Shown: positions 13,407-48,051, numbered from the stretch's first letter. The stretch: 64,000 nucleotides of DNA from an uncultured Erysipelotrichaceae bacterium (GCA_902801525.1 CADCIN010000002.1:12323-76322); one strand, 5' to 3'. Notes: generated by a model from the sequence alone, not told the origin. Program-made: numbers and translations.

Positions 13407-15065
13407 GTGATAAAATATATGTATGGTTCAATTTCAACTTTGTTATCTATATATAGACCTGAGGAAATAGCAAAATATATAAGATTGTCTGAAGAAGATA
13501 AAAATAAAAAAGGTGGAATAATTGATGAATCTGAATCAATAACTAATCAAAGATTGATTCTAAATCAATTTATAGATATAAGAGGAAATCAGGGGTGTTT
13601 ATGTAAAGAATTTGTAGATGATGGTAAATCCGGAACTAACTTTGATAGACCAGGATGGAAAAATTTATTAGATGAAGTAGAAAATGGTACTATAAAAGTA
13701 ATTATAACTAAAAATCTATCAAGATTAGGAAGAAATAATTATGAATGTAGTTACTATATGGACTGTTATTTTCCAGATGTGGGAATTAGATTTATGACAG
13801 TTCAAGAAGATGTTGATACACTAGACCTATATAAAAGTAGTAATGATTATGCAGGAATAACAAATGTAATGAATGAGAAATATTCAAGAGACTTGTCAAA
13901 AAACATAAAAAATTCAAAAAGAGTTCGGCAAGAAAATGGAGAATATATTGGTGGTAATAATACCCCATTTGGATATTATCGAGATCCTACAGATAAACAT
14001 CATTTACTAATAAATGATGTTGAAGCTGTAATTATAAGAATGATTTTTGAAAAATTTACTGAATTAAAAACTCAAGGAGCATTAAAAGAATATCTATTTA
14101 ACAACAAAATATCAACACCTTCTCAGTTTAGACATTATAAAATTCAATCAAAGATACCATATAGATGGGATTCAAGAACATTACATGATATACTAACAAA
14201 CGAAGTTTATATTGGTCATATGGTTCAACATAAATGGGAGAAAAAGAATTTTAGAAGAAAAAAATTATCAAGAGTACCAAGTGAGCAGTGGATTAAAAAA
14301 GAAAATAAACATGATGCGATAATTACGATTGAACAATTTAACTGGGTTCAAGAATTATTAAAATGTGCTCCAAAAAAGTCAAAATTTAACGAACGCGAAT
14401 TATTAGAAGGTATGATGTATTGTCATGAATGTGGACATGCTTTAACTATAAATAGTAAAACTAAACACAAAGGAAAAGATGGAAAAATATATAAGCAATA
14501 TTATTTAATATGTAGCTATTATAAGAAACATAAAAAGGCAAAGGTATGTGAAAGTCATTCATGTAATTATTTTGAATTTGAAAAGTTTGTATTGGAATAT
14601 TTAAATAATATATGTAAAAACTATGTTGATATTATTAAATGCAAAAGTTTAGCAAAAGAGAAAATTTCGAAAATTGATGATAAAAAGCGAAGATTAGAGA
14701 ACAGCATAGAATCATTAGGAAAAGAAATTAAATCGATTGAAGAAAAAATTGAAAGAGCATATATGGATAGACTAGATAATAAAATATCCATTGATATTTA
14801 TAAAAATATATCTTCAAAACTAATTGAAGATAAAGAAAATATTGAAAAGCAATATAATGAGTTAAAGGAAACATATAATGAATTCATGTCAAAGAATTCA
14901 GATGAACGATTAATAGAGGCAGAAGAAGTAGCAGAAGAATTTATTAAAAGTAGAAAAAAGGTTTCAAGAGATTTAATTGTAAAAATAATTGATAAGATAG
15001 AATTTACAAAAGATAAACAAATATTAATTTATGTTAAAATGAAACAATTGGAATATTTAAACTGA
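13407..15065 (+). CDS. large serine recombinase (integrase of the element)
   Basis: N-terminal resolvase-type motif AKYIRLSEEDK...SITNQR, with DDGKSG and NLSRLGRN. A Cys-rich zinc-ribbon region (CHECGH...CSYY...C) and a C-terminal coiled coil. It lies at the junction with the truncated valS. Confidence 0.85.
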   Translation: MIKYMYGSISTLLSIYRPEEIAKYIRLSEEDKNKKGGIIDESESITNQRLILNQFIDIRGNQGCLCKEFVDDGKSGTNFDRPGWKNLLDEVENGTIKVIITKNLSRLGRNNYECSYYMDCYFPDVGIRFMTVQEDVDTLDLYKSSNDYAGITNVMNEKYSRDLSKNIKNSKRVRQENGEYIGGNNTPFGYYRDPTDKHHLLINDVEAVIIRMIFEKFTELKTQGALKEYLFNNKISTPSQFRHYKIQSKIPYRWDSRTLHDILTNEVYIGHMVQHKWEKKNFRRKKLSRVPSEQWIKKENKHDAIITIEQFNWVQELLKCAPKKSKFNERELLEGMMYCHECGHALTINSKTKHKGKDGKIYKQYYLICSYYKKHKKAKVCESHSCNYFEFEKFVLEYLNNICKNYVDIIKCKSLAKEKISKIDDKKRRLENSIESLGKEIKSIEEKIERAYMDRLDNKISIDIYKNISSKLIEDKENIEKQYNELKETYNEFMSKNSDERLIEAEEVAEEFIKSRKKVSRDLIVKIIDKIEFTKDKQILIYVKMKQLEYLN

Positions 15066-16815
15066 TAAGGATTATGGTCATACGGGGTGGGCGAAAATTA
15101 CCCCAGCACATGATCCTAACGACTTTGAAGTTGGAAACAGACATAATTTAGAAAGAATAGTTATCATGAATGATGATGCTACAATGAATGAAAATGTTCC
15201 AAAAAAATATCAAGGAATGACTAGAGAAAAATGTCGTGAAGAGCTTCTAAAAGATTTAGAAAAAGAAGACTTATTACTTGAGGTTGAACCACTAGTTCAT
15301 GAAGTTGGGCACTCAGAAAGAACAGGTGTAATGGTTGAACCAATGATTAAAAAACAATGGTTTGTTAAAATGAGACCACTTGCTGATAATGTATTAGAAA
15401 ATCAAAAAGATACAAAGACAAAAGTTCATTTTGTACCATCATCATATGAAAAAACAATGAATCACTGGATGGAAATAACATATGATTGGTGTATTTCTAG
15501 ACAGTTATGGTGGGGACATAGAATTCCAGCATGGTATAAAGATGATAAGATCTATGTAGGAATGGAAGCACCAAAGGAAGAAGGATGGAAACAAGATGAA
15601 GATGTATTAGATACATGGTTCTCAAGTGCATTATGGCCATTCGCAACATTAGGTTGGCCAGATAATACAGATTTATTAAATAGATATTATCCAAATAATA
15701 CATTAGTAACTGGATATGATATAATTCCGTTCTGGGTAAATAGAATGACATTTCAAGGAGAAAGGCTTCTTGGTAAAAGACCATTTGAACACTGTTTAAT
15801 TCACGGACTAATTCGTGATAAACAAGGAAGAAAATTCTCAAAATCATTAGGAAATGGAATAGATCCATTTGATATGGTAAAAGAATATGGTGCAGATGCA
15901 CTAAGATATTATCTAGCAACAGATGTATCATCAGGAACAGATATGAGATTTGATGAAGATAAAATTAAAGCAACATGGAACTTTATTAATAAACTTTGGA
16001 ATGCATCAAGATTTACTTTAATGAATATCTCTGATTTAAAAGAAATTAAATTAGATAACTTGAAAAATGAAGATAAGTGGATATTAACAAAATATGAAAA
16101 TACAATACATACAGTTAAAAAATTCATGGATAAATTTGGATTTAACAATGCAGGAGCAGCTATCTATGATTTCACATGGAATTACTTCTGTGATTACTAT
16201 ATTGAAATGGCCAAATATTCAATTGATGATGAAACAACTAAATCAATATTATGTTTCATATTGTCAGGTATTTTAAAAATGCTTCATCCATTCATGCCAT
16301 TCGTAACTGAAGAAATTTATAATATGCTTCCAGTAAAAGATGAAGAATCGATTATGATTTCCGAATATCCAAAACATCAAAAGAAATATATATTTGAAGA
16401 AGAAGAAAAAGCAGTAGATGACGCAGTTGAATTTATTAAATCATTTAGAAATGTAAAAGCTGAAAATAATATGACAAAAGATTTAAAAGTTATGTTTGAT
16501 ACAGAAGACGATAATGAATTAATTGTTAAATTATTAAGATTAGATGACAACATAGTAAAAGAACCAACTGGTGCTAAAGCATATAAAGTATTCTCAAATA
16601 GAATAAAAGCGACAATATTCTTTGATAAAATTGAATCAGAAGCAGATAAAAAATTAAAAGAAGCACAAATAGAAACATTAAAAACTTCTATTGCAAGAAG
16701 AGAAAAATTATTATCTAATGAAAATTATGTAAATAAAGCACCAAGCAACATAGTTGAAAAGGATAAGAAAAAACTAGAAGAAGAAAAGAAAAAACTAGAA
16801 GAATTAACTAAATAA
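15064..16815 (+). pseudogene. valS: valyl-tRNA synthetase, 3' portion only (N-terminal catalytic part with HIGH motif absent; gene split by element insertion)
   Basis: The in-frame translation from 15064 reads DKDYGHTGWAKITPAHDPNDFEVGNRHNL (the CP1 editing-domain TPAHD motif). Downstream are KFSKSLGN (KMSKS), the anticodon-binding region and the C-terminal coiled coil. The frame is closed by a TAA at 15058-15060. Confidence 0.85.
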
Positions 16816-16825
16816 AAGGTGAATA

Positions 16826-17593
16826 ATGAATAAGAAAAAAACTCTTTATGCTCTTGTACTAATAATGGCCCTAACAAATGCAGGCTGTGGTAGTAAAGAA
16901 GCCATAAATAAAGCAGTAGAAATAGTAACTACAACAAGTGATGAAGATCTAGAAAAAATGGCATCATCATATGAAGAATATACAGAAATCGCAACAACAA
17001 TGGTTGAAACTACTACTGAAATGGGAACAGTAAAAGAAACAGAGCAAACTTCTGAAATATATACAATAAGTAATATAGAAGAAACACAAACTGAGGCAGA
17101 AACTATACAGCCATTTAATCAAGTAGTAACTGATATTATTAATGAAAATAAAAATAATTTTAATGATTATTATAAAGAAGATTATGAATTGTTTAAAACT
17201 AAAGGTAAAGGGCTATTTATCAAGTTAATAGACTTTCTATTTTATAATTCACAAATCAATGGAGTAACATTTCAGCAATTAACAACTGAAGAAAAACTTA
17301 AATTATATTCAGAATTAGTAAAATTAGATAGTGCTATTATGACAATTGAACCAAACTATAAAGAAACACTTGGAGAAAAATATAATACTATAAAAGATTT
17401 TTCAAAAGAAAAATTAGATACAGTAAAATCTAAAATTAGTGAAAGAATTGGTCAAGAAGAGTATGAAAGTATTCAAAATAAAATAAATGAAAAAAAAGAT
17501 TATGGAGAAAGTATTTATACTGAAAAAAAAGATAAAGTAAAAAAATATGCTGCCGAAAAATACCAAAATTTTAAAAATAATAATCAGGAATAA
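16826..17593 (+). CDS. putative lipoprotein
   Basis: Signal peptide ending LTNAGC (lipobox-like), followed by an acidic, T/E-rich mature region. Confidence 0.55.
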   Translation: MNKKKTLYALVLIMALTNAGCGSKEAINKAVEIVTTTSDEDLEKMASSYEEYTEIATTMVETTTEMGTVKETEQTSEIYTISNIEETQTEAETIQPFNQVVTDIINENKNNFNDYYKEDYELFKTKGKGLFIKLIDFLFYNSQINGVTFQQLTTEEKLKLYSELVKLDSAIMTIEPNYKETLGEKYNTIKDFSKEKLDTVKSKISERIGQEEYESIQNKINEKKDYGESIYTEKKDKVKKYAAEKYQNFKNNNQE

Positions 17594-17643: not shown

Positions 17644-17672
17644 TTGAAAATTATAAAGAAAAATGATAATAT
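17644..17672 (+). promoter_or_regulatory. sigma-A promoter with extended -10 for paralog 1
   Basis: TTGAAA at 17644-17649, a 17-nt spacer ending TGA, then TAATAT at 17667-17672. Confidence 0.55.
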
Positions 17673-17735: not shown

Positions 17736-18323
17736 ATGAAAGGAAATAATCAAAAAAGTGCTTACGTGTTACTAGGAGTATTATCTATAATGATTATTGG
17801 ATTGAGTATTGCATTTGCAGCATTATCATCAACATTAAATATTACTTTTGGAAATGTAACACAAAGTGCAGAAAGTTGGAACATAGCATTCAAAACAGGA
17901 ACAGGAGTTGCTGGAACAGCTAAAGGAACAAGTACAACAGGAAGAACATGTGGAACTGCAAATATTACTGCAACAACTGCAACTATTGCAGATACTACAT
18001 TATCAAAACCAGGTGATTCTTGTACATGGCCATTAACTGTAGAAAATAAAGGAACAATTGATGCAACATTAGCAACAATTACACCAACTGCACCAACATC
18101 TGTAACTTGTACAAATAGTGGAGCAAGTATGGTATGTGGTAATATTACATATAAAATTACTACAGACGAAAATGCATTAACATTATTAAAAACAGGTGGA
18201 AAACTTGCTAAATCAGGTACACAACAAATATATTTAACAGCAACTTATACTGGATCAACACTTTCAGCAACTGAAGTAGTTCAATCTGGTGCTAAATTTT
18301 CTTTAGTATATAACCAAGCATAG
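17736..18323 (+). CDS. secreted four-cysteine beta-sandwich-like protein, tandem family member 1
   Basis: Signal peptide with AFA-ALS cleavage-like site, conserved ITFGNVTQS..W, LSKPGDSCTW, GASMVCGNITYK, and ending LVYNQA. Confidence 0.8.
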   Translation: MKGNNQKSAYVLLGVLSIMIIGLSIAFAALSSTLNITFGNVTQSAESWNIAFKTGTGVAGTAKGTSTTGRTCGTANITATTATIADTTLSKPGDSCTWPLTVENKGTIDATLATITPTAPTSVTCTNSGASMVCGNITYKITTDENALTLLKTGGKLAKSGTQQIYLTATYTGSTLSATEVVQSGAKFSLVYNQA

Positions 18324-18343
18324 TTATATATTAATTAAAAGGG

Positions 18344-19453
18344 GTGATGACAATTAATAATTCAGAAAAAGAAATTGAACTCCTTGATATATTTGAAGAA
18401 GAGAAAATAGAAGTACCACAAAAAGAAATAAAAAAAGATAATTCAAAACTCAAATATCCAAAATATGATAGTTTTGAAAAAAAACTAATGCGAAAAATTA
18501 TTCCTATAGTGGTAATGATAATTGTATCTGCTATATCGCTTTTCAAAATATTTGATTATATAGCAAATAATAAAGAAACATTCAAGGAATTATCAACATC
18601 GAATTACTTTGTGTGTTTAAGTGATAATGAGTATTATGAATTAGAATGTCAACCTGAAAATATGCAATATTTAGCTGGTGAAACAAAAACAATTAAATAT
18701 AATGTTTCATATAATGCTTTATATAACTACAATGTTGATAAAAAATATAATTATGATATTGTTGCTGATTTAGATATATATAGTGATGAAGAAAATAGTA
18801 AAACTCTAATTCACAAATCAGAAAAAATAGTATCTAATAAAATGGTAAAAATGCAAGGTAGCTATCATACAATAAATGATACAGTTACAATACCATTTTC
18901 AAAATATTATAATTTAATACAAAGTTATGAAAATAAATATGGAGTATTGACTAAATCCACATTCAAAATAACTTTTAAAGTAAATAACAAAGATATTTCT
19001 TCAATTAATATGAATTTAGGTAGATCTACTTATAAGATAGATAAACAAGATACTAAAAATAGTAGTATTATTGATAAGAGTTTAAAAGAATCTTTAACAT
19101 CAGAATTAATGGTATACATTATTGTATTTGCAGTTAGTTCTATAGTATCAATAATATTATTAATAAATATAATATATTTTCTAATTAGATATACACCAAA
19201 GAAAAGTTCATATCAAAATAGTCTAAAAGAAATTTTGAAAAATTATGACAGAATAATAGTAGAAATTAAAGATGTTAAACCTCTAATTCAAGATAAACCA
19301 ATAATTAAGGTTAAAACATTTCTTGAATTAGTCGATTTAAGAGATACTATTGATAGACCAATATTACATGTAAGGATAAATAGTATCAAAGATGCATTCT
19401 ATGTAAATGATGCTGATAAAATTTATGAATATGTAATGAAAGATAATAATTAA
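18344..19453 (+). CDS. two-TM membrane protein of unknown function embedded in the paralog array
   Basis: 369-aa ORF with hydrophobic segments IIPIVVMIIVSAISLF and LMVYIIVFAVSSIVSIILLINIIYFLI. Confidence 0.6.
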   Translation: MMTINNSEKEIELLDIFEEEKIEVPQKEIKKDNSKLKYPKYDSFEKKLMRKIIPIVVMIIVSAISLFKIFDYIANNKETFKELSTSNYFVCLSDNEYYELECQPENMQYLAGETKTIKYNVSYNALYNYNVDKKYNYDIVADLDIYSDEENSKTLIHKSEKIVSNKMVKMQGSYHTINDTVTIPFSKYYNLIQSYENKYGVLTKSTFKITFKVNNKDISSINMNLGRSTYKIDKQDTKNSSIIDKSLKESLTSELMVYIIVFAVSSIVSIILLINIIYFLIRYTPKKSSYQNSLKEILKNYDRIIVEIKDVKPLIQDKPIIKVKTFLELVDLRDTIDRPILHVRINSIKDAFYVNDADKIYEYVMKDNN

Positions 19454-19472
19454 AATTTGAGAGGAATAAAAC

Positions 19473-20063
19473 ATGAAAGAAACAAGCAAAAAGAAATCAT
19501 ATATTATTTTAACAGTATTATCAGTAATGATAATTGGATTAAGTGTTGCTTTTGCAGCATTATCTACAACATTAACAATTAACTTTGGAAATGTTACACA
19601 ATCTTCACAAAATTGGAATGTTCAATTTAAAGAAGAATCTGCACTAGAAGCAGAAAAAAATGGAACTAGTGATACTGGACTAGTATGTGGTACAGTTAAA
19701 GCAACTACTACAACTGCTACAGTATCTGATTCAACATTATCTAAACCTGGTGATAAATGTGTATGGGCATTAAATGTTAAAAATACAGGAACAATCGATG
19801 CAACATTATCAACAATTACTCCAGTAACACCATCTTCAGTAGAGTGTACAACTGTAGGTGCAAGTATGGTATGTGGAAACATTACTTATAAATTAGCTTC
19901 AAATGCTGATGGATCTACATTACTTGCAACAGGAGTAGATGTTTTAAATACAACAGGAAATCTACCAGTTTATTTAGTTGCTGAATATACAGGAACTGAA
20001 CTTAGTGCAACACCAGTAACTCATACAGGTGCTGGATTCACAATGAACTTTGCACAAAAATAG
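19473..20063 (+). CDS. secreted four-cysteine protein, family member 2
   Basis: Same architecture and motifs: VAFAALSTTLTINFGNVTQS, LSKPGDKCVW, GASMVCGNITYK. Confidence 0.8.
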   Translation: MKETSKKKSYIILTVLSVMIIGLSVAFAALSTTLTINFGNVTQSSQNWNVQFKEESALEAEKNGTSDTGLVCGTVKATTTTATVSDSTLSKPGDKCVWALNVKNTGTIDATLSTITPVTPSSVECTTVGASMVCGNITYKLASNADGSTLLATGVDVLNTTGNLPVYLVAEYTGTELSATPVTHTGAGFTMNFAQK

Positions 20064-20075
20064 GAGGTAAATATA

Positions 20076-20672
20076 ATGGAACAAAACGAAAATAAAGTAA
20101 AGAATAGAGAAGTATATGTAATTCTTTCAGTATTGTGCGTAGCTGTAGTAATTCTTGCAGTTGCATATGCTGCTTTATCTTCCACATTAGAAATTAACTT
20201 TGGTACTGTTTCGCAAAATGTACAATCTTGGAATGTAGGATTTATTCCAGGTACTGCAACAGCAACATCTAAAGGAACAAGTACTACAGGTTTAGTATGC
20301 GGAAGTGCAACTGTAACAACTGATACAGTTACAGTTGCAGATTCATCAATTTCTAAACCAGGTGATTCTTGTACTTATAAATTAACAGTTAAAAATAGTG
20401 GATCAATCAATGCAAAATTATCAACAATTACACCAGTAGATCCTGCATCTACAAGCTGTACAAAAGATGGAGCAAGCATGGTATGTGGAAATATTACTTA
20501 TAAATTAACAACAGACGATGTTGGAACTACATTATTAACAGCAAATGCTAGCTTAGAAACAGCTAAAAGTCAAACTGTATATTTAAGTGCTACATATACA
20601 GGAACAGGATTACAATCTGAAGCAGTAACACAATCAGGAGCAGGTTTTACATTAGTTTATAATCAAGCATAA
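20076..20672 (+). CDS. secreted four-cysteine protein, family member 3
   Basis: VAYAALSSTLEINFGTVSQN, ISKPGDSCTY, GASMVCGNITYK, LVYNQA. It lies 12 nt after member 2. Confidence 0.8.
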   Translation: MEQNENKVKNREVYVILSVLCVAVVILAVAYAALSSTLEINFGTVSQNVQSWNVGFIPGTATATSKGTSTTGLVCGSATVTTDTVTVADSSISKPGDSCTYKLTVKNSGSINAKLSTITPVDPASTSCTKDGASMVCGNITYKLTTDDVGTTLLTANASLETAKSQTVYLSATYTGTGLQSEAVTQSGAGFTLVYNQA

Positions 20673-20675
20673 AAT

Positions 20676-20710
20676 AAAAAAACTTTAAATTTAATTTTAA
20701 AGTTTTTTTT
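20676..20710 (+). terminator. intrinsic terminator after family member 3
   Basis: AACTTTAAA / TTTAAAGTT stem flanked by an A-run and a T-run. Confidence 0.55.
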
Positions 20711-20737
20711 TGTAAAATTATCTGAATAAATGTTATA

Positions 20738-20766
20738 TTGAAATAATTTGAATAAAATGTTAAAAT
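20738..20766 (+). promoter_or_regulatory. sigma-A promoter for family member 4
   Basis: TTGAAA at 20738-20743, a 17-nt spacer ending TGT, then TAAAAT at 20761-20766. Confidence 0.5.
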
Positions 20767-20783
20767 ATATATAAGAAAGATAA

Positions 20784-21371
20784 TTGGAGGATGAAATGCA
20801 TAAACAAAAGTACAAAATAATTTTAATTTTAACAGCTTTATTATTAACACTAGGTGTTGCTTTTGCAGCAATGAAAAAAACTTTAACAATAAAATTTGGA
20901 AATGTAACACAAACAGCACAAACATGGAATGTAGGTTTTGTTCCAGTAGCAAGTCAAACTGCAACAACAGGTTGAACAAGTACAACAGGAAGAGTCTGTG
21001 GAACAGCAACAATAACTGCTACAACAATAACTGTAGCTGATACAACACTTTCTAAGCCAGGTGACACCTGCGCATGGCCTTTAACAATAAAAAACTCTGG
21101 ATCACTTGATGCAATGGTAACAAATATTACAGCAACAAAACCAGGTTCAACAACATGTACTGTAGACGGAGCAGGAATGGTCTGTGGTAATATTACATAT
21201 AAACTTAAACCTGATATAGTAAAATCAGATGTTTATTCATTAAATTCTGTAATAGAGTCAAACAAAACTCAGGATTTATACTTAGTAGCAGCTTATACTG
21301 GTGACACAGTTAATACAACAGCAGTAACACAATCATCAGCAGCATTTACACTAGTATTTGGTCAAAAATAA
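20784..21371 (+). pseudogene. family member 4, interrupted by a single in-frame TGA (20973-20975)
   Basis: ORFs 20784-20975 and 21114-21371 share a frame, with no other stop between them. The TGA aligns with the conserved Gly (GGA) of the TTGGTSATGR / KGTSTTGR motif in the paralogs. Confidence 0.8.
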
Positions 21372-21446
21372 AATTAATGATATTGAAAAATTATATAAAA
21401 AATGATACTCTATAAAAGTAAAAAGTAGTATATATAGGAGGATAAA

Positions 21447-22034
21447 ATGAAAATCAAAAATGAGAAAAAAACTTATGTCTTAATAGCAGTATTAACTGGA
21501 TTAGTTATTAGTTTAGGAATCGCTTATGCAGCTTTATCCCAAACATTAGATATAACATTTGGTAACGTTACACAAAACGCTCAAACATGGAAAATTGGAT
21601 TTGTAACACAATCAGCAGCAGCAGCTACAACAACTGGTGGAACAAGTGCAACAGGAAGAACTTGTGGAACAGTTACAACAACATCTACAACTGCTACAAT
21701 AACAGATACTACATTATCAAAACCAGATGATAAATGTATCTGGAAATTACAAGTTAAAAATTCTGGTAATATAGGTGCAACTCTTTCAGATTTAAAAGCA
21801 GTACAACCTGAATCAACTACATGTACAGTATCAGGTGGAAGTATGGTATGCGGCAATATTACATATAAGCTTACAACAGATGAAGCTGGATCAACATTAT
21901 ATAAAAAGGGAACAGCTCTTGCAGTAGGTGCTACAAAAGATTTATACTTAGTTGCACAATTTACTGGAAGTATTTCATCAACCAAAGTAACTCAATCTGC
22001 AGCTGGCTTCACATTAGTTTATGGTCAAAAATAA
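21447..22034 (+). CDS. secreted four-cysteine protein, family member 5
   Basis: IAYAALSQTLDITFGNVTQN, LSKPDDKCIW, GGSMVCGNITYK, LVYGQK. Confidence 0.8.
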   Translation: MKIKNEKKTYVLIAVLTGLVISLGIAYAALSQTLDITFGNVTQNAQTWKIGFVTQSAAAATTTGGTSATGRTCGTVTTTSTTATITDTTLSKPDDKCIWKLQVKNSGNIGATLSDLKAVQPESTTCTVSGGSMVCGNITYKLTTDEAGSTLYKKGTALAVGATKDLYLVAQFTGSISSTKVTQSAAGFTLVYGQK

Positions 22035-22040
22035 TATAGA

Positions 22041-22070
22041 AATATAATCATTTGATTATATTTTTTTTTT
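22041..22070 (+). terminator. intrinsic terminator after family member 5
   Basis: AATATAATC / GATTATATT stem followed by T10. Confidence 0.55.
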
Positions 22071-22164
22071 ACATAAAAATAAAATATAATAAATAAAAAT
22101 TTTATATTGATATTTATTTTTTTTTTGTTATAATCTAATTAAGTTTAGAAAAGAGGAAAGACAA

Positions 22165-22731
22165 ATGTATGATTATGAAACAAAATTAATAAACCTATTA
22201 GCTTGTAATGATAATATTTTCACACCAAAAGAGGAACAGATAATAAAGTTTAAAAATGCTTTAAACAAAGCAGCTGAATTTTATAAAACGTTAGATTCAT
22301 CTAATAGATATAATGAAGTAAATAATTTTGAAAATACAAGGGAAAGTATAATTGACCATAAAGCAAAAATATCATGGACAAAGAATAACATAGGAACAAA
22401 CTTTGAAAAGGAAGTTAACAGATTAATATTTGAAACCAAATATAATGATCAAAAATTTGATATAAAAAGACTACAACAAAGAGCGTGCAATATCTATGTT
22501 GATATAATAACTAATGATTTTTATAGAGATAAATATCTTGCCATGAGAAAAGATACTGAAGAAGCAATTGATTACGATAAATTAGATGTGTTAAAAGATG
22601 AAAATGAGGTAATTATAATTAATTGTAATTATGAAACAAAATTTGAAATAATGGAAATTGATGAAGAATTTTCAAAACAAAAAGTATATATAAAGGGTGG
22701 ACATTGTGAAGAAGGAAAAAACATTAAATAA
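22165..22731 (+). CDS. hypothetical protein
   Basis: 188-aa ORF with a GAGGAAAG RBS upstream. No motifs recognised. Confidence 0.45.
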   Translation: MYDYETKLINLLACNDNIFTPKEEQIIKFKNALNKAAEFYKTLDSSNRYNEVNNFENTRESIIDHKAKISWTKNNIGTNFEKEVNRLIFETKYNDQKFDIKRLQQRACNIYVDIITNDFYRDKYLAMRKDTEEAIDYDKLDVLKDENEVIIINCNYETKFEIMEIDEEFSKQKVYIKGGHCEEGKNIK

Positions 22732-23275
22732 ACATCAAAAGAATATTAATAAGAAAAAAGCTGAAATAGCAGAAATAGATAAATCGATTGATAACAAAAA
22801 AGACAATATAATTATATATAAAATAGTATTTGGACTATTGCTATTACTAGTAATTATATTATCAGTACTCGCATATAAAACATCTAAAGAAAATCCAAAG
22901 ACTAATTATACAGTACCAATAGCCAAAGGAAATAATGAAGTAACACTTGAAGTAGATACAACAAGTTTAAAGAAAAATAATAAAAAAGAATACACATTTT
23001 CTATAGTAAATTATAATAATAAAAATCAAATAGATGGTAATAATACAAAATATATTATTGAAATAATACCATCATCAAATATAGAAACATCTAACAAGTT
23101 AACTAAATTGGATAGTACCAAAAATTTATTAATAAATAATAAAACAAACTATAGAAAATTTAAAAATAGTAGTAAAAAATCAAAAGATAATTATAAACTT
23201 ACTATAAAGATGAAAAATAAAAAAGATAAAAAAAATAGTTATGTAACAATATATGTTAAAGGAATAGTCAAATAA
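22697..23275 (+). CDS. hypothetical membrane-anchored protein
   Basis: 192-aa ORF with TM segment IIIYKIVFGLLLLLVIILSVLAY. Followed by a terminator. Confidence 0.45.
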   Translation: MDIVKKEKTLNKHQKNINKKKAEIAEIDKSIDNKKDNIIIYKIVFGLLLLLVIILSVLAYKTSKENPKTNYTVPIAKGNNEVTLEVDTTSLKKNNKKEYTFSIVNYNNKNQIDGNNTKYIIEIIPSSNIETSNKLTKLDSTKNLLINNKTNYRKFKNSSKKSKDNYKLTIKMKNKKDKKNSYVTIYVKGIVK

Positions 23276-23298: not shown

Positions 23299-23353
23299 AT
23301 TGTCATAAAATTACAAAAATGATATACTATAGAACACCTAGATGGAGGAGTAT

Positions 23354-24730
23354 ATGAAAATTTCAGAAGATGAAGATTGTAATTTAAAAAAGAAAAATAT
23401 AAAAAATCTAATAATAAATAAAAATACAGTTAGATTATTACTTGGATCATCAATAATGGTTTCAACAATTACACTTTGTAAAGATTATAAAAATTATAAA
23501 CCAGAAAAATTATCAACAGGAATAACTTCGTCATTAATAAAACAAAATAATTATAATTATGAAAAAATAGTAAAAATAGATTCTGAAAAACAAGTAAATC
23601 TAATGTATAACAAAAAAAACTTCTCGAAAATAAAAGAATTAAATATTACAGTCTGTGACACAAATATAGAAGATTTAAAAAAGTTTCCTAATTTAGAAAA
23701 ACTAACACTAAAAGATGTTGAATTATTAACTGATAATGATAAAAAAACAATAAATAGTTTAGAAAACTTAAAGATAATTGATTTATGTTTAAATGGACAT
23801 AATTTTAATGAAAATATAGATATTTCATGGATAAGCAACAAGAAAATTGAAATAACTAAAGAATATAATATTACTAATGATTTAAGTGATTTAATAGCAT
23901 TTCATAAATCAAAAGAGTTAATTGAAGAAAATCCTAATTTAACAGTTAAATATTTTTCACCAGATAGATTGAATGAATTAATTAACTGGGATCAAAAAAT
24001 TGATAATTTAGTTAAATCATTTGAATTTTATGAACATACTACTGATGAGAAAAAACTAGTCGTATTAACTAATTATGCAACAGATTCAGTAGAATATGAT
24101 CCAGACATAATTGACGCACCACAAGCAAAAGCAGACCAGCAATATGATCGAATATTTTATTTAAACAACAATTTACTAAAAGATTACTTTGATGGTAAAG
24201 AATATGGAATATGTTGTAATTATGGAGCATTATTAAAAATATTAAGTGTCTATTCAGAATTAGATTTAGACTACATAGAAGGAGTCTATGGAATTACACC
24301 AGAAAATTCACAAGGACATGTATGGTGCAAATATAAAGATAATATAGTTGATCCTACACAATTAGATTATTCAATTGCATATAATAATACAAAAGCAAAA
24401 TATAATAGTATAGATAAATCTAATGATTTTATACTTAATACTGTTCAGCAAGATGAAATATCAATAATAGAAATATTACCATCAGATTTAGCATATACAA
24501 ATTATACAGAAGATGCTGTATATAAAGCACATAAAAATATAGAATATGAAAATGAATATGCTAATTATTATAATACTATTGTAGATAATGATATTAAAAA
24601 ACATGAATTATTAATATTAGCTAGTTTATTACTATTGAAAACAACATTTACTAAAAAGAAAGAAAGAAAACTAGGTAAAAAAGTTATAAAAAATAAAACC
24701 AAGAAATTAGAATACAATATAAATATATAA
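23354..24730 (+). CDS. transglutaminase-like (Cys-His-Asp) domain protein with LRR-like N-terminal region and C-terminal TM anchor
   Basis: A GGAGG RBS precedes the ATG at 23354. GICCNYGALL (Cys), QGHVWCKY (His) and IVDPTQ (Asp) occur in the order typical of transglutaminase-core proteins. LRR-like LKKFPNLEKLTLKDVELL. Confidence 0.5.
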   Translation: MKISEDEDCNLKKKNIKNLIINKNTVRLLLGSSIMVSTITLCKDYKNYKPEKLSTGITSSLIKQNNYNYEKIVKIDSEKQVNLMYNKKNFSKIKELNITVCDTNIEDLKKFPNLEKLTLKDVELLTDNDKKTINSLENLKIIDLCLNGHNFNENIDISWISNKKIEITKEYNITNDLSDLIAFHKSKELIEENPNLTVKYFSPDRLNELINWDQKIDNLVKSFEFYEHTTDEKKLVVLTNYATDSVEYDPDIIDAPQAKADQQYDRIFYLNNNLLKDYFDGKEYGICCNYGALLKILSVYSELDLDYIEGVYGITPENSQGHVWCKYKDNIVDPTQLDYSIAYNNTKAKYNSIDKSNDFILNTVQQDEISIIEILPSDLAYTNYTEDAVYKAHKNIEYENEYANYYNTIVDNDIKKHELLILASLLLLKTTFTKKKERKLGKKVIKNKTKKLEYNINI

Positions 24731-25612: not shown

Positions 25613-26821
25613 ATGAAAAAAGTAATTATTGTAGGAGCAGGTCCATCAGGATTAACTGCGGCAATTAAATTATCTAAAAAATATGAAGTAATAGTTTTAG
25701 AAAGAAATGATAAAATAGGTAAAAAATTATTATTAACTGGTTCTGGGCATTGTAATTATTATAATAGTGATCAAGATATAAAGCATTATCATAGTAATAA
25801 TCCTGATTTAATAAAAGAATTGGTTAACGAAAATAACTTAAATAAAGTAAATACCTTTTTTAATAAAATAGGTTTAGTACCTAAGATAAAAAATGGATAT
25901 TATTATCCAATGTCTAATCAAGCTACATCAGTTAACAATGCACTTATTTCAGAATGTTTAAATAGAAGTGTTAAAATACTAACAAATGAATTTGTAAAAA
26001 GTATTAGAAAAAATGAAAATACTTTTGAAGTAGAAACATCAAATAATAAATATACATGTGATAAATTAGTATTATCAACTGGATCATGTGCTTATCCAAA
26101 AACAGGTTCAGATGGAAATGGATATGATTTATTAAGAAGTTTTAATATCCCAGTTACAAATATTTATCCATCACTTGTTCAAATAAATTGTAAAAAGGAT
26201 AAATTTAATTATAAAGATTGGGATAAAGTAAGATGTGATGCTTCAGTAAAACTAATTGAGAATAATATAGAAATAAAAAAAGAAGTTGGACAAATACAAC
26301 TAACTGATTATGGATTAAGTGGAATATGTATAATGCAACTAAGTGGTTTAATAAATAAAGGAATAAATAATAATAAAAAAGAACAAGTAGAAATTAATTT
26401 TTTGCCAGAAATTAATGATTTAAAACAATATTTAATAAATAGAAGTAATATATTAAAAAATAGAGAATTAGAAGATTTGTTAGATGGACTATTAAACTAT
26501 AAATTAGTTAATCTAATATTAAAAACACTTAAAATATCACATAAGAAATGGAATGAATTAACGAATAAAGAAATAGATGATTTAGTAAACTTTATTTCAA
26601 AGTTAAAATTAGAGGTTACAAGTACTAAGTCATTTGATAATTCACAAACAGTTACTGGTGGAGTACCTCTAACTGAAATTAATTTAGATACATTAGAAAC
26701 AAACAAAGTAAAAGGTTTATATTTAACTGGTGAATTAATTGATATAGATGGAGACTGTGGTGGATATAATTTAACTCTTTCATGGCTTACAGGTCTAGTA
26801 GTAGGTGGACAAAATGATTAG
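25613..26821 (+). CDS. HI0933/YhiN-family NAD(FAD)-utilising flavoprotein
   Basis: N-terminal dinucleotide fold VIIVGAGPSGLTAAIKL. The 402-aa length and the C-terminal GELIDIDGDCGGYNL motif are typical of this family. Confidence 0.65.
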   Translation: MKKVIIVGAGPSGLTAAIKLSKKYEVIVLERNDKIGKKLLLTGSGHCNYYNSDQDIKHYHSNNPDLIKELVNENNLNKVNTFFNKIGLVPKIKNGYYYPMSNQATSVNNALISECLNRSVKILTNEFVKSIRKNENTFEVETSNNKYTCDKLVLSTGSCAYPKTGSDGNGYDLLRSFNIPVTNIYPSLVQINCKKDKFNYKDWDKVRCDASVKLIENNIEIKKEVGQIQLTDYGLSGICIMQLSGLINKGINNNKKEQVEINFLPEINDLKQYLINRSNILKNRELEDLLDGLLNYKLVNLILKTLKISHKKWNELTNKEIDDLVNFISKLKLEVTSTKSFDNSQTVTGGVPLTEINLDTLETNKVKGLYLTGELIDIDGDCGGYNLTLSWLTGLVVGGQND

Positions 26822-28391
26822 AATAAGACAAATACAAATTGAAGTTCAAAATGACACTAAAGAATATTTAATAAAAAAAATAAAAAGTAAATTAAATAAT
26901 AATATAGAATTTAAAAAATTAGAAATAGTAAAAAAATCAATTGATGCTAGAAAAAAGCCAAATGTATATTATGTTTATGAAGTAGATATAGAAGTAGATA
27001 ATGAAGAAAAACTAATGAAAAACATAAAATCAAAAGATATAGACATAGTAATAAAGAAAGAGTATGAGTTTAATAAAACAGGAACAATTACATTAAAAAA
27101 AAGACCAGTAATAGTAGGATCAGGACCTGCAGGTCTATACTGCGCATATTTACTATCTGAAAATGGATATAAACCACTTGTAATCGAAAGAGGAGAAGAA
27201 GTAGATAAGAGAGTAGAAAAAGTAGAAGAATTCTTTAATAATAATAATTTAGATATAAATACTAATATTCAATTTGGAGAAGGTGGAGCAGGTACATTCT
27301 CTGATGGAAAGTTAAATACATTAGTAAAAGATAAAGAAAAAAGAGGAAGAAAAGTATTAGAAGTATTTGTAGAAAATGGAGCACCTAAAGAAATATTATA
27401 TGAATATAAACCACATATTGGAACTGATATCTTAAGAAATGTAGTTAAAAATATGAGAAATAAAATTATATCTAATGGAGGAGAATTTAGATTCAATACT
27501 ACACTAACAAATATAAATTATAAAAGTAACAAGTTAATAAACATAGAAGTAAATAATAATGAAATAATAGATACAGAAGTATTAGTACTCGCAATTGGTC
27601 ATAGTGCAAGAGATACTTTTAAAATGATTTACGATAAGAAAATAGAAATGACAACTAAACCATTCGCAGTTGGAATAAGAATAGAGCATCCGCAAAAAAT
27701 GATTAATAAAAGTCAGTATGGAAACAAAGTAAAAATGCCTCCTGCAAGTTATAAATTAACATATCAAGCAAAAGATAAAAGAGGTGTATATACATTTTGT
27801 ATGTGTCCTGGAGGTTATATTGTAAATGCATCATCTGAAGAAGGATTACTTGCTATAAACGGAATGAGTAATCATCAAAGAGAAAGTTCATCAGCCGCAT
27901 CCGCAGTAATAGTAACAATAAATGAAAAAGATTTTGGTACACACCCATTAGATGGAATAGAGTTTCAAAGAAAATTAGAAAGAAAAGCGTTTAAAGAAGG
28001 TAAAAGTAAAATTCCAGTTCAGTTATATAAAGATTTTAAAGAAAACAAATTATCTTCAGAATTAAAAGATGTTAAATTAGAAATTAAAGGATCATATAAC
28101 TATGGAAATATTAATAATATTTTACCAAGAAAAATATGTAATGATTTAATAGAAGGAATTGAATATTTTGGTACTAAAATAAAAGGATTTAATAGAGAAG
28201 ATGCAGTACTTGCTGCAGTTGAATCACGTACATCATCCCCTGTAAGAATTATTAGAAATGATAAATTACAAAGTAATATAGAAGGAATTTATCCTGCAGG
28301 AGAAGGTGCTGGATATGCAGGAGGAATAACATCGGCAGCTATAGATGGAATAAAAATAGCTGAAGAAATTGCAAAAATTTACATAGTTTGA
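26814..28391 (+). CDS. FAD-dependent dehydrogenase (COG2509-like)
   Basis: VIVGSGPAGLYCAYLL...ERGE dinucleotide motif and C-terminal YPAGEGAGYAGGI. Ends with TGA. Confidence 0.6.
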   Translation: MIRIRQIQIEVQNDTKEYLIKKIKSKLNNNIEFKKLEIVKKSIDARKKPNVYYVYEVDIEVDNEEKLMKNIKSKDIDIVIKKEYEFNKTGTITLKKRPVIVGSGPAGLYCAYLLSENGYKPLVIERGEEVDKRVEKVEEFFNNNNLDINTNIQFGEGGAGTFSDGKLNTLVKDKEKRGRKVLEVFVENGAPKEILYEYKPHIGTDILRNVVKNMRNKIISNGGEFRFNTTLTNINYKSNKLINIEVNNNEIIDTEVLVLAIGHSARDTFKMIYDKKIEMTTKPFAVGIRIEHPQKMINKSQYGNKVKMPPASYKLTYQAKDKRGVYTFCMCPGGYIVNASSEEGLLAINGMSNHQRESSSAASAVIVTINEKDFGTHPLDGIEFQRKLERKAFKEGKSKIPVQLYKDFKENKLSSELKDVKLEIKGSYNYGNINNILPRKICNDLIEGIEYFGTKIKGFNREDAVLAAVESRTSSPVRIIRNDKLQSNIEGIYPAGEGAGYAGGITSAAIDGIKIAEEIAKIYIV

Positions 28392-45429: not shown

Positions 45430-45951
45430 GTGAAAAATTTAGATAAAAATACTGGGAATATGGGTAGAGTTATAGATAAAGAAACTATAAAAGAAATAAC
45501 AATTCCAAGATTCCTTGAAGAAAAAAGTAGACCAAGAAAAGAAGAAGAAAAGAAAAAGCCAAAAAGTAAAAAAAGAATTGCTAAAGATATTGCAATTTTC
45601 TCATTAGGTGTACTTGCAACCACAGCATCAGTAAAATTATATCAATATGAAGTAGGCAAAAATGCAATTATAAAAGAATTCGATTCTAAAACATCTTTTC
45701 ATAGAGATAATCAAAGTTATGGATTTCAAATTTATCAAGGAACAACAAGATATAACTATTATGATGGTATTAAAGCTTGGGTAGAAGAAGCTAGAGCAAA
45801 TGGAATGTCTGATCAAGAAATATCAGTTGCAATTTCGTGTGAACTTTCAAGTGATGCTGCAGAAACAGGACTAGGAGAAGAAAATTTTTCAGACTTTGGT
45901 GAAAGAATAGAAACTTGTAATAAAGCATATTACAAACAAAAATTAAAATAA
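45430..45951 (+). CDS. hypothetical membrane-anchored protein
   Basis: GTG start after an AAGGGGGA RBS. One TM segment, IAIFSLGVLATTASV. Confidence 0.45.
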   Translation: MKNLDKNTGNMGRVIDKETIKEITIPRFLEEKSRPRKEEEKKKPKSKKRIAKDIAIFSLGVLATTASVKLYQYEVGKNAIIKEFDSKTSFHRDNQSYGFQIYQGTTRYNYYDGIKAWVEEARANGMSDQEISVAISCELSSDAAETGLGEENFSDFGERIETCNKAYYKQKLK

Positions 45952-46049: not shown

Positions 46050-46512
46050 TATGAAAATAAACAGAAAAAAATCAAAAATAAATCATGGTAATGTAATACA
46101 ATCAGCACAAAACTAGAATGTAGTATTTGTAGAAAACAGTGTACTAGCAGCAACAAAATATGTTACAGGTGATACAGGAAGAGTCCGTGGAGCAGCAACT
46201 GTAACAAGTCAAAATGTAACAGTATCAGATATTAAACTATCAAAACAAGATGATAAATGTTCTTATGAATTAACAATGAAAAATAGTGGTTCAAATGCTT
46301 GCAAAATTAGATGAATTAAGTACAATTAGTCTAAAATAACTTACATATCAATACGGTAATGGAAAATATGGCGTATTTGTATGTGGAAACATAAGATATA
46401 AATTGGAAAGTAAAAAAGACGGATCAGGTTCAACTTATTAGATGAATATCAGTCGGCAACAAACTCACTAGTAATTGCAGGAAATATAAAGAATTATATG
46501 AAACTGAAATAA
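46050..46512 (+). pseudogene. decayed sixth member of the four-cysteine secreted protein family
   Basis: Reads MKINRKKSKINHGNVIQSAQN*NVVF...GRVRGAATVTSQNVTVSDIKLSKQDDKCSYELTMKNSG...VCGNIRYKL. The signal-peptide core is deleted, the conserved Trp codon is TAG, and there are several frame breaks. Confidence 0.65.
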
Positions 46513-46593: not shown

Positions 46594-48051
46594 ATGAATG
46601 AGACAAGAGGAGCAAAAGGATCTAGAAATGACCGCAAAAGAGTTCAAAATATTATTAAAAAAAAGAAGATAAAAAAACAAAGACAAATGCAAGAAGAAAA
46701 AAGAAGAAAAAGGCAAGAAGAAAAGAAATTAAGAAGAAATAAAGAAATAATGAATATGACTCTTAAAGACAAAGAAAAACTAGTAAGGAAAGACCAAATA
46801 AAAAATATAGTTAAATTAGCGCCTCTTGTAGTAGTAGGAAAAACATATGAATCAGTTAAACCCTCTAAAATAAAAAAAGAAAATATTCAAGAAGTTAAAA
46901 AAGATAAATTAAAAAAGCAACCACCAAAAGAGCAAATGAAAAAAGAAGAAAAAGAAGTAAAGCAAGAACCAATAAAAAAAGAAACAAAAGAAGTAAAGAG
47001 TAATAAAATAGATTCTAAAACACTTAAAAAAGTAGCTAATATAAAGATAACAACTGCATATACAAATGAATTAAAAGAAGCCAAGTTAAATTTAAAAAAT
47101 AAAATAATAGAGTATAATGTACTTGCAAAAAGTCCTGAATTAAAATATTCAGAAGATAAAATAAGTGAAAATATTAAAGATATAAATTTATTAATAAGAA
47201 AAATAGAAAATCTTACAGAAAAGCTAAAAAGAGATATAAAAACTGATTTTAATGATTCATACATGGATTATATGACAGATGTATATTTAGATATGTTTAA
47301 TAATAAAAGACCGGCTAAAGGTATCAAAAACTCAGATATATACATAGAATTATCTCAAAATATAAAAAAAGTAAAAACTAAAGAAGAAAAGTTTGATAAG
47401 AAAAATACTATCAAAAAAGCAATGAACTTTGTAATAGAAGATGACTTAAAAGAATTTATTGAAAAGATGGATAATCCAGAGAATATGCTTGAAAAACTAA
47501 AAGAATTTGAAAAAGAACAAGAAAATATTTTAAAAGATCTAGATGAAAAATTAGAAAAAGCAGTAAATATTAAAGAAGTAACTAAATATAAAATTAAAGG
47601 CCTAAATAAATTTAGTAAGAATCTTATGAAATTAGTATCAGTAAAAATGCTACTTCCAGGACCAGCAACAGTTAAAGCAACATCTCTTGCAGTATCTTCT
47701 TCATTAGCAGTAATGAGTAATTTAATTAATCCAAATATAGAAAAGAAAAAAGATACAAAAATTACAGTAACTGATTATGAAAAAGAATTAAATAAGAATT
47801 TAGATGATTTAAGCAGTGTAATTAAAAATATTAAAGATGCAAATAAAAATGTTCAAAATACAATAAATGATTTTTATAATAATTATAAAGATTATTTTGA
47901 AGATTATCCTGAATGTGTAGAAATATATAATAATATGTTAAATATAATGACAGAGTTAGAAACTAAATCATATGAGATAGAAACTTTAAAGAAACAAAAA
48001 GAAAAACAACTAGAAAAAAATAATGCAAAAGTACTAGCTTATGGAAAATAA
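46594..48051 (+). CDS. lysine-rich coiled-coil protein with central hydrophobic segment, unknown function
   Basis: 485-aa ORF with a GAGGG RBS and hydrophobic segment LLPGPATVKATSLAVSSSLAVM. Confidence 0.5.
   Translation: MNETRGAKGSRNDRKRVQNIIKKKKIKKQRQMQEEKRRKRQEEKKLRRNKEIMNMTLKDKEKLVRKDQIKNIVKLAPLVVVGKTYESVKPSKIKKENIQEVKKDKLKKQPPKEQMKKEEKEVKQEPIKKETKEVKSNKIDSKTLKKVANIKITTAYTNELKEAKLNLKNKIIEYNVLAKSPELKYSEDKISENIKDINLLIRKIENLTEKLKRDIKTDFNDSYMDYMTDVYLDMFNNKRPAKGIKNSDIYIELSQNIKKVKTKEEKFDKKNTIKKAMNFVIEDDLKEFIEKMDNPENMLEKLKEFEKEQENILKDLDEKLEKAVNIKEVTKYKIKGLNKFSKNLMKLVSVKMLLPGPATVKATSLAVSSSLAVMSNLINPNIEKKKDTKITVTDYEKELNKNLDDLSSVIKNIKDANKNVQNTINDFYNNYKDYFEDYPECVEIYNNMLNIMTELETKSYEIETLKKQKEKQLEKNNAKVLAYGK

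Follow-up and report, generated by a model that had tools for sequence, protein, structure and literature searches.

Fibres of the TasA superfamily form by strand donation without a chaperone, and their recognition as a strategy for matrix formation and adhesion in both bacteria and archaea is recent. For two systems that polymerise by donor-strand complementation, the archaeal Tafi pili and the AbpX-like matrix fibres, a signal peptidase and a DUF5305 protein were described in 2025–26 as an accessory pair (PMC11821415; bioRxiv 10.64898/2026.01.04.697558). DUF5305 is TafG of the archaeal Tat-fimbriae (Tafi), a proposed helper of the dedicated signal peptidase TafD, and is fused to a signal peptidase in some organisms; published Tafi-like clusters consist of signal peptidase, DUF5305 and subunits of 150–200 amino acids (aa) (PMC11821415, PMC12337348). 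In AbpX-like loci of archaea and bacteria, a 2026 preprint describes DUF5305 as an accessory protein of signal peptidase I (SPase I), an enzyme with ten transmembrane helices in these loci (bioRxiv 10.64898/2026.01.04.697558). Here we analyse a 64,000-nucleotide (nt) stretch of DNA from an uncultured Erysipelotrichaceae bacterium (GCA_902801525.1 CADCIN010000002.1:12323-76322; the window), in which five paralogous genes for proteins of ~195 aa form an array around a DUF5305 gene. We lean towards the reading that the array encodes subunits of a TasA/Tafi-like cell-surface fibre, chiefly on the basis of conserved partner genes. Systems of this kind are already known; the ~195-aa subunit family is new by sequence.

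Tafi and Tafi-like clusters of archaea (TafA/TafE or DUF1102 subunits, TafD and TafG) unite several exported paralogues of 150–200 aa with a dedicated S26 peptidase and DUF5305. The window holds DUF5305, and both partners occur in 11/11 related loci, counting those whose fetched stretch holds the three types of gene. Non-halophilic versions of Tafi use Sec signals, as the present family appears to do, and Natrinema Tafi is among its nearest folds. The two differ in their subunits, with DUF1102 not among the 25 Pfam families most often matched at E≤1 by 67 members of the family, and no PDB sequence match to the TafE pilin (9p0a). They also differ in the peptidase, which here has ~8–9 hydrophobic segments followed by a C-terminal catalytic domain, whereas TafD has an N-terminal catalytic domain, four transmembrane helices and an immunoglobulin (Ig)-like C-terminal domain. 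The hosts here, moreover, are bacterial, and the family has four invariant cysteines.

AbpX-like fibrils, members of the TasA superfamily from Pyrodictium abyssi with homologues in Bacillota and Chloroflexota, are alike in having a mature subunit of ~165 aa with possibly disulfide-forming cysteines, a many-pass SPase I and DUF5305 in their loci (for the window family, in the related loci only), and minor subunits and adhesin or anchor proteins in the same clusters. AbpX-like proteins are, however, acidic (isoelectric point, pI, ~4; ~15% Asp/Glu), whereas the present family has a median pI of 7.9 and 4% Asp/Glu (pI 4.6–8.9 and 5–8% in the window copies). Their donor strand is aromatic at position 2 and acidic at position 4, features both missing from the window family, which begins A-L-S-[STQ]-T-L. 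No sequence link between the window family and AbpX-like proteins was detected.

The likeness to TasA and BsaA (Peptidase_M73, TIGR04090) lies in an apparent dependence on an archaeal/SipW-type peptidase and in the signal peptide and first mature residues, which align with the BsaA family of the window over 53 columns (hhalign probability 89%); the sandwich domain stays unaligned in this profile–profile comparison. The first-pass annotation had seen a resemblance to TasA/camelysin-type proteins in the SKPGD..N.G segment, and 14/67 family members do match Peptidase_M73 on exactly that segment, but all below threshold (best E 0.0065, 16.8 bits against a cut-off of 22.5). The subunits have no TIGR04090 or TIGR04088 match, and no threshold of these families is passed. 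TasA loci, for their part, contain TapA and lack DUF5305.

A conserved module of family genes, DUF5305 and a signal peptidase

Five paralogous genes lie on the + strand at the places given by the first-pass annotation, and its two-transmembrane protein of 369 aa is indeed encoded between copies 1 and 2 (Table 1). This protein proved to be a significant member of DUF5305, matching profile positions 4–217 of 217 with 57 bits against a cut-off of 29. By hydropathy, hydrophobic segments at about residues 47–75 and 250–285 bracket a domain of ~175 residues, and the N- and C-terminal flanks are rich in Lys/Arg; the topology predicted from the sequence would fit the two-transmembrane architecture described for DUF5305 (bioRxiv 10.64898/2026.01.04.697558), with an extracytoplasmic domain and a C-terminal cytoplasmic domain.

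Loci of relatives were fetched and scanned with hidden Markov models built for the subunit family, for DUF5305 and for a neighbouring protein of ~380 aa. Eleven distinct loci hold all three, with 2–8 tandem family genes, DUF5305 and the ~380-aa polytopic protein; four further loci, ended by a contig edge, show compatible fragments, and the fetched stretch of locus L014 shows only family genes. The C-terminal domain of the ~380-aa protein passes NCBIfam TIGR02228 (archaeal-type signal peptidase I) with 75–78 bits against a cut-off of 51.85, and roughly 8–9 hydrophobic segments lie N-terminal to it. Its peptidase motifs are VHR (12/12 examined), KGD[AY]N (11/12) and GSxSMxG (9/12). Subunits, DUF5305 and peptidase are thus a conserved three-part gene module, which had been missed by the first-pass annotation; its proposed check, co-occurrence of the family with the membrane protein, gave a DUF5305 homologue beside family genes in 11/11 full-set loci. 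Among species-representative genomes, 15/15 loci come from uncultured metagenome-assembled genomes labelled Bacilli, Bacillales, Firmicutes, Erysipelotrichaceae or Tenericutes, and those of the 15 with an annotated source are all from ruminant gut sites.

A neighbour-joining tree groups the subunits of several other species by position into orthologous clades, one of them a divergent clade encoded beside the peptidase. L003_f3 and L005_f7 make up a separate divergent clade of this kind; L003_f3 has a transmembrane segment and lacks both the A-x-A|ALS motif and the donor-strand-like segment. The four intact copies of the window all belong to one 'major-type' group. Orthologous clades tied to position fit specialised subunits better than switchable alternatives.

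An exported four-cysteine family of probable subunits

Aligned with copy 1, the other copies are 50–58% identical, and 58 columns are invariant across all five. Each copy begins with a Lys-rich N-terminus and a hydrophobic stretch of ~20 residues, ending in an A-[FY]-A cleavage-type site that is followed by A-L-S, or by A-M-K in copy 4. Cysteines C72, C96, C125 and C134 (copy 1 numbering) are invariant in the window copies, as are the A26-x-A28-A29 site, SKP.D.C and MVCGNITYK; the shared segments further include T-L-x-I-x-F-G-x-V-[ST]-Q, and SKP.D.C reads SKP[GD]D.C in full. Variable loops rich in Thr, Ala and Gly separate these anchors, and Thr, Ser, Ala and Gly together make up 45–53% of the mature proteins. 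The alignment bears out the export signal, which is of the Sec type, and the Lys-rich N-terminus, AxA site, paralogy and four-cysteine pattern of the first-pass annotation. Across the 67-member family alignment, the four cysteines, W48, SKP-D and CG..TY stay invariant, and few segments are as conserved as the mature N-terminus (mean entropy 1.15). Three N-x-T sequons (LNIT, GNVT and CGNIT) recur in the window copies and may be glycosylation sites; N136-I137-T138 of CGNITYK is at least 90% conserved family-wide.

A word-indexed search returned 257 relatives, all of ~195 aa and none with a Pfam domain, and the sole name given to them in any source is 'hypothetical protein [Bacilli bacterium]'. 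With an exhaustive profile search, we found 115 cluster representatives (50% identity) at E≤1e-30, a sign of the abundance of the family in ruminant gut Bacilli, and 914 at E≤1e-10; core positions 83–155 of the profile also match repeats of giant proteins. Searches with the subunits gave nothing that passed the curated cut-offs of Pfam or NCBIfam. Matches to Pfam at E≤1 but below threshold were to HYDIN-type Ig domains in 43/67 members and to DUF11 in 38/67 (best E 2.8e-5), with DUF11 reaching 20.4 bits against a cut-off of 24.6 in the window copies; distant homology between the subunit core and Ig repeats of the DUF11/CARDB type is likely from these profile matches. The PDB profile search gave one match only, in which CGN[IV]T[YH]K is aligned with a family 3 carbohydrate-binding module (CBM3; 2l8a, E 0.095). 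Profile and structure searches had been proposed as a check, and they yielded no clear match to a known characterised class in Pfam, NCBIfam, PDB or Foldseek. The earlier statement that the family cannot be assigned to anything characterised holds where the sequences of the subunits are concerned; it does not hold for the whole system.

Some relatives carry C-terminal extensions or adhesin-like domains fused to the family module. The adhesin-like proteins P0273, P0277 and P0295 have the family signal peptide or the whole N-terminal module, and the extension of P0295 is 44–61% identical to C-terminal domains of a 1285-aa VWA protein encoded in the window; proteins of this adhesin-like set are fused to a domain homologous to that VWA protein. 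At locus L005, the gene between the peptidase and DUF5305 (15430–17136) encodes a BspA-like DUF285 protein whose signal peptide is of the same type. Such fusions, the DUF285 protein and the transmembrane member of L003 would fit a heteropolymer whose end subunits serve for adhesion and anchoring.

Predicted structure and proposed assembly

The precursor and mature forms of copy 1 were modelled as monomers with AlphaFold2. The precursor model, made with the 67-sequence alignment (mean predicted local distance difference test score, pLDDT, 88.6), has a helix at residues 6–32, and all that follows from residue 50 onwards is a beta-sandwich; residues 33–49 form no strand and have lower pLDDT (block means 56 and 80). 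In the mature model (pLDDT 92.5; predicted TM-score, pTM, 0.83), the first 21 residues are without strand assignment. Conservation without structure, as in this mature N-terminus, is how a donated strand would appear when a subunit is modelled as a monomer. Among the 50 nearest folds in the PDB, the majority are chaperone–usher pilins (FimA, FimG, FimI, the pilin domain of PapG, and CsuA/B). The Saci_0406 thread is also among the nearest (E 0.014), and weak matches were obtained to Natrinema Tafi (TafE pilin, 9p0a_C; E 0.04, probability 0.96, TM-score 0.39–0.43) and to the TasA fibre (8aur_A; E 0.071, TM-score 0.29–0.37). As neighbours of a predicted fold, these donor-strand pilins are suggestive only.

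In the assembly that we propose, the ~195-aa precursors would be exported via Sec and cut by a signal peptidase after the invariant A-[FY]-A, releasing a mature beta-sandwich of ~167 aa that is preceded by a conserved flexible strand, ALS-T-L-N-I-T-F-G-x-V-T-Q. Donor-strand complementation would follow, the N-terminal strand inserting into the sandwich of a neighbouring subunit, and would give rise to thin fibres of the surface or matrix that resemble the TasA, Tafi and AbpX filaments, with the paralogues as major and minor subunits. DUF5305 would serve as the TafG-like partner of a dedicated archaeal/SipW-type peptidase, the ~380-aa polytopic protein that shares the operon in every related species examined. 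The window would then contain only 'major-type' subunits and DUF5305, and the peptidase and the divergent clade would be elsewhere in the genome, replaced by another enzyme, or lost. More tentatively, the module may represent an undescribed bacterial family of donor-strand fibres restricted to uncultured rumen and gut Bacilli, with up to eight specialised two-disulfide paralogues, processing by a fused polytopic peptidase and DUF5305, and modular adhesin ends that could include a homologue (44–61% identity) of the retroelement-diversified C-terminal domain of the VWA protein of the window. If the fibre reading is right, the peptidase and DUF5305 act on a family of subunits for which sequence searches find no link to TasA, Tafi or AbpX, and DUF5305 together with a polytopic SPase I would be a marker for further hidden fibre families. 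The reading would also point to structures that are candidates for adhesion or biofilm formation in an uncultured gut lineage, and to a compact cysteine-stabilised subunit suited to self-assembly tests in vitro.

An interrupted copy and a decayed sixth copy

The first-pass annotation counted five genes of ~195 aa. Four are intact, but copy 4 is interrupted by an in-frame stop that had been overlooked, as had a sixth, decayed copy in an apparently intergenic stretch between open reading frames (ORFs) at 45430–45951 and 46594–48051. In copy 4, TGA replaces a Gly codon of the other four copies, and a single change from GGA to TGA would suffice. The identical TGA is present in four independent metagenome assemblies (L020–L023), between which a frame-preserving 15-nt indel (ATTIT) in copy 4 is polymorphic. 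The frame is otherwise open, with a likely start at ATG 20796 instead of TTG 20784, which says little about read-through because the strains are 99.6–100% identical. Copy 4 is probably a pseudogene. An alternative code, with TGA read as Gly or Trp, was rejected: ORFs under translation table 11 tile the window unbroken, and 130 TGG codons specify Trp. The code is therefore table 11 and the TGA of copy 4 a nonsense codon, though TGA is rare, ending 2/54 long ORFs (13407–15065 and 26805–28391) against 35 for TAA and 17 for TAG. The intact copies have at most two substitutions relative to any of three near-identical strains (99.6–100% identity), which are too close for strain-level substitution counts to be informative.

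Weighing the alternatives

Several observations weigh against a fibre, some in the subunits themselves and some in the make-up of the locus. Neither by sequence nor by profile are the subunits significantly similar to TasA/BsaA, to DUF1102/Tafi or to any PDB chain, and the alignment with the BsaA family stops short of the beta-sandwich. Foldseek searches of the PDB with the full-length and mature models gave nothing at E≤1e-3, with TM-scores of at most 0.53, and CBM2 and CBM3 modules rank as high as the pilins (CBM2 6qfs, E 3e-3 to 6e-3, TM-score 0.18–0.31). The four invariant cysteines, too, would imply extracellular disulfides, with C72–C96 and C125–C134 as the predicted pairs. An unlikely alternative is that these are exported beta-sandwich proteins that do not polymerise, such as monomeric glycan-binding or adhesive modules, which the peptidase and DUF5305 only process and release. 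The CBM2 and CBM3 folds among the top Foldseek matches would fit this, as would the sole PDB sequence match to a CBM3, the sub-threshold DUF11 and HYDIN-type Ig matches in 38–43/67 members, the match of the core to repeats of giant surface proteins, and hosts that live in the rumen and gut. All of those matches are, however, below significance, with TM-scores of 0.18–0.30 to the CBMs, and monomeric modules would leave three things unexplained: the conserved unstructured N-terminal strand, the 2–8 specialised paralogues per operon, and the peptidase/DUF5305 pair, which has so far been described with donor-strand fibres. Among the options raised by the first-pass annotation, the fibre subunit is the one we favour, with a DUF5305/TafG-like partner and an archaeal-type peptidase in 11/11 full-set related loci.

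The make-up of the locus bears on whether it still functions. By tblastn, neither a dedicated ~380-aa peptidase nor a remnant of one is present in the whole 64-kb window, the sole match being a SipW-type enzyme, and the dedicated peptidase was also not found on the sister-strain contig L020, which reaches 3.5 kb further upstream, past an intact valS. No S26 signal peptidase gene is adjacent to the DUF5305 gene in the window or L020, and the divergent subunit clade has no representative in the window; with peptidase and divergent clade both missing from it, the locus looks partial. The SipW-type enzyme is the only S26 peptidase of the window. It shares 29–32% identity with the dedicated enzymes in their peptidase domain, and it is no more than a candidate for processing the subunits in trans. 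Together with the stop in copy 4, fixed in four assemblies, and the decay of the sixth copy, which suggest that the locus may be eroding in this species, these absences could point to a remnant with no current function, in which the subunit genes have outlasted the peptidase and the specialised subunit. We consider this quite unlikely, since four copies and DUF5305 are full length, keep every invariant residue and have ribosome-binding sites and terminators of their own, and the peptidase could lie elsewhere in the genome, as the Tafi peptidase and DUF5305 are likewise separate genes. Less probable still, and not supported here, is the antigen variation that the first-pass annotation had offered as an option, a set of alternative, variably expressed surface antigens, anchored or secreted, among which several promoters allow switching. 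Separate promoter-like sites and terminators, variable loops between conserved anchors and the silencing of one copy by a stop codon are what such a set might show. An inverted-repeat scan for invertible promoters, however, returned only AT-rich chance pairs and terminators, with no recombination features or recombinase sites flanking the promoters; a serine recombinase nearby belongs to a strain-specific element inserted in valS. The copies, moreover, are essentially invariant between strains, albeit near-identical ones, and in other species they are co-operonic and fall into the position-specific clades described above.

Layout of the array

The window has ~25% GC, and its + strand holds nearly all genes. 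Copy 1, the 369-aa gene, copy 2 and copy 3 follow one another with gaps of 12–20 nt. Terminators had been reported after copies 3 and 5, and AT-rich hairpins with T-runs were found at both places; none of 200 shuffles folds as well as the hairpin after copy 3 (z −3.35). The same folding check of hairpins and T-runs found no hairpin terminator between copies 4 and 5. Promoter-like hexamers are present upstream of copies 1, 4 and 5, as reported earlier, but they are weak evidence because such sites are frequent in DNA of 25% GC: 86 were counted, against 51 expected from shuffles.

Table 1. Coordinates of the array and of related features, counted from the first nucleotide of the window
Feature	Position	Strand	Remarks
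Promoter-like site 5' of copy 1, TTGAAA-17-TAATAT with TG	17644..17672	+	consensus match only; frequent in AT-rich DNA
Copy 1, 195 aa	17736..18323	+	predicted signal peptide residues 1–28 (AFA|ALS); mature 167 aa
DUF5305 (TafG-like) two-transmembrane membrane protein, 369 aa, between copies 1 and 2	18344..19453	+	Pfam PF17231
Copy 2, 196 aa	19473..20063	+	family paralogue
Copy 3, 198 aa	20076..20672	+	family paralogue
Intrinsic terminator after copy 3, AT-rich hairpin and T-run	20676..20712	+	−10.4 kcal/mol
Copy 4, probable pseudogene, in-frame TGA 20973–20975	20796..21371	+	Gly column in other copies
Copy 5, 195 aa	21447..22034	+	exact protein on 9 public contigs
Terminator after copy 5, AT-rich hairpin and T-run	22038..22071	+	−8.8 kcal/mol, z −4.9
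Decayed sixth copy, several stops and frameshifts	~46078..46435	+	tblastn with family members, 45–58% identity over fragments
SipW-type signal peptidase I, 172 aa	8984..9502	+	TIGR02228, 105.8 bits

Neighbouring genes

The SipW-type peptidase belongs to a separate canonical SipW-dependent matrix cluster (BsaA–SipW–sortase, 8397–11393; TIGR04090 at 117.6 bits, TIGR04088 and TIGR02228). It comprises BsaA-family proteins at 8397–8996 (under the TIGR04090 cut-off) and 9471–10133 (over it), a 214-aa protein with a C-terminal transmembrane segment and a sortase (10791–11393), and a 713-aa Flg_new/SHIRT/DUF11 surface protein is encoded upstream. This cluster is left of a breakpoint at 15094, on strain-specific DNA that the sister strain does not have at this place. 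Identity between the window and L020 starts only at 15094, inside valS, which is truncated in the window (its 5' part is missing) and intact in L020 (1404–3938, 844 aa). A large serine recombinase (13407–15065) lies directly to the left, so that an integrated element or an assembly join interrupts this essential gene.

Further upstream, the gene of the 1285-aa VWA surface protein (70–3927) ends in the variable copy of a diversity-generating retroelement. Its variable repeat (3732–3851) and template repeat (4164–4283) are 120 nt long and differ by 24 mismatches, all at template adenines. A 137-aa ORF (4428–4841) follows with the position and size of a putative Avd accessory gene, and a reverse transcriptase (RVT_1) is encoded at 4825–6321.

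Downstream of the array, a 192-aa transmembrane protein (22697–23275) was considered as a family member and rejected (hhalign probability 3.5%). The next protein, of 462 aa (23342–24730), has N- and C-terminal hydrophobic segments and no Pfam hit; by eye, its Cys, His and Asp residues (CCNYG...GHVWC...D) are reminiscent of transglutaminase-like proteases.

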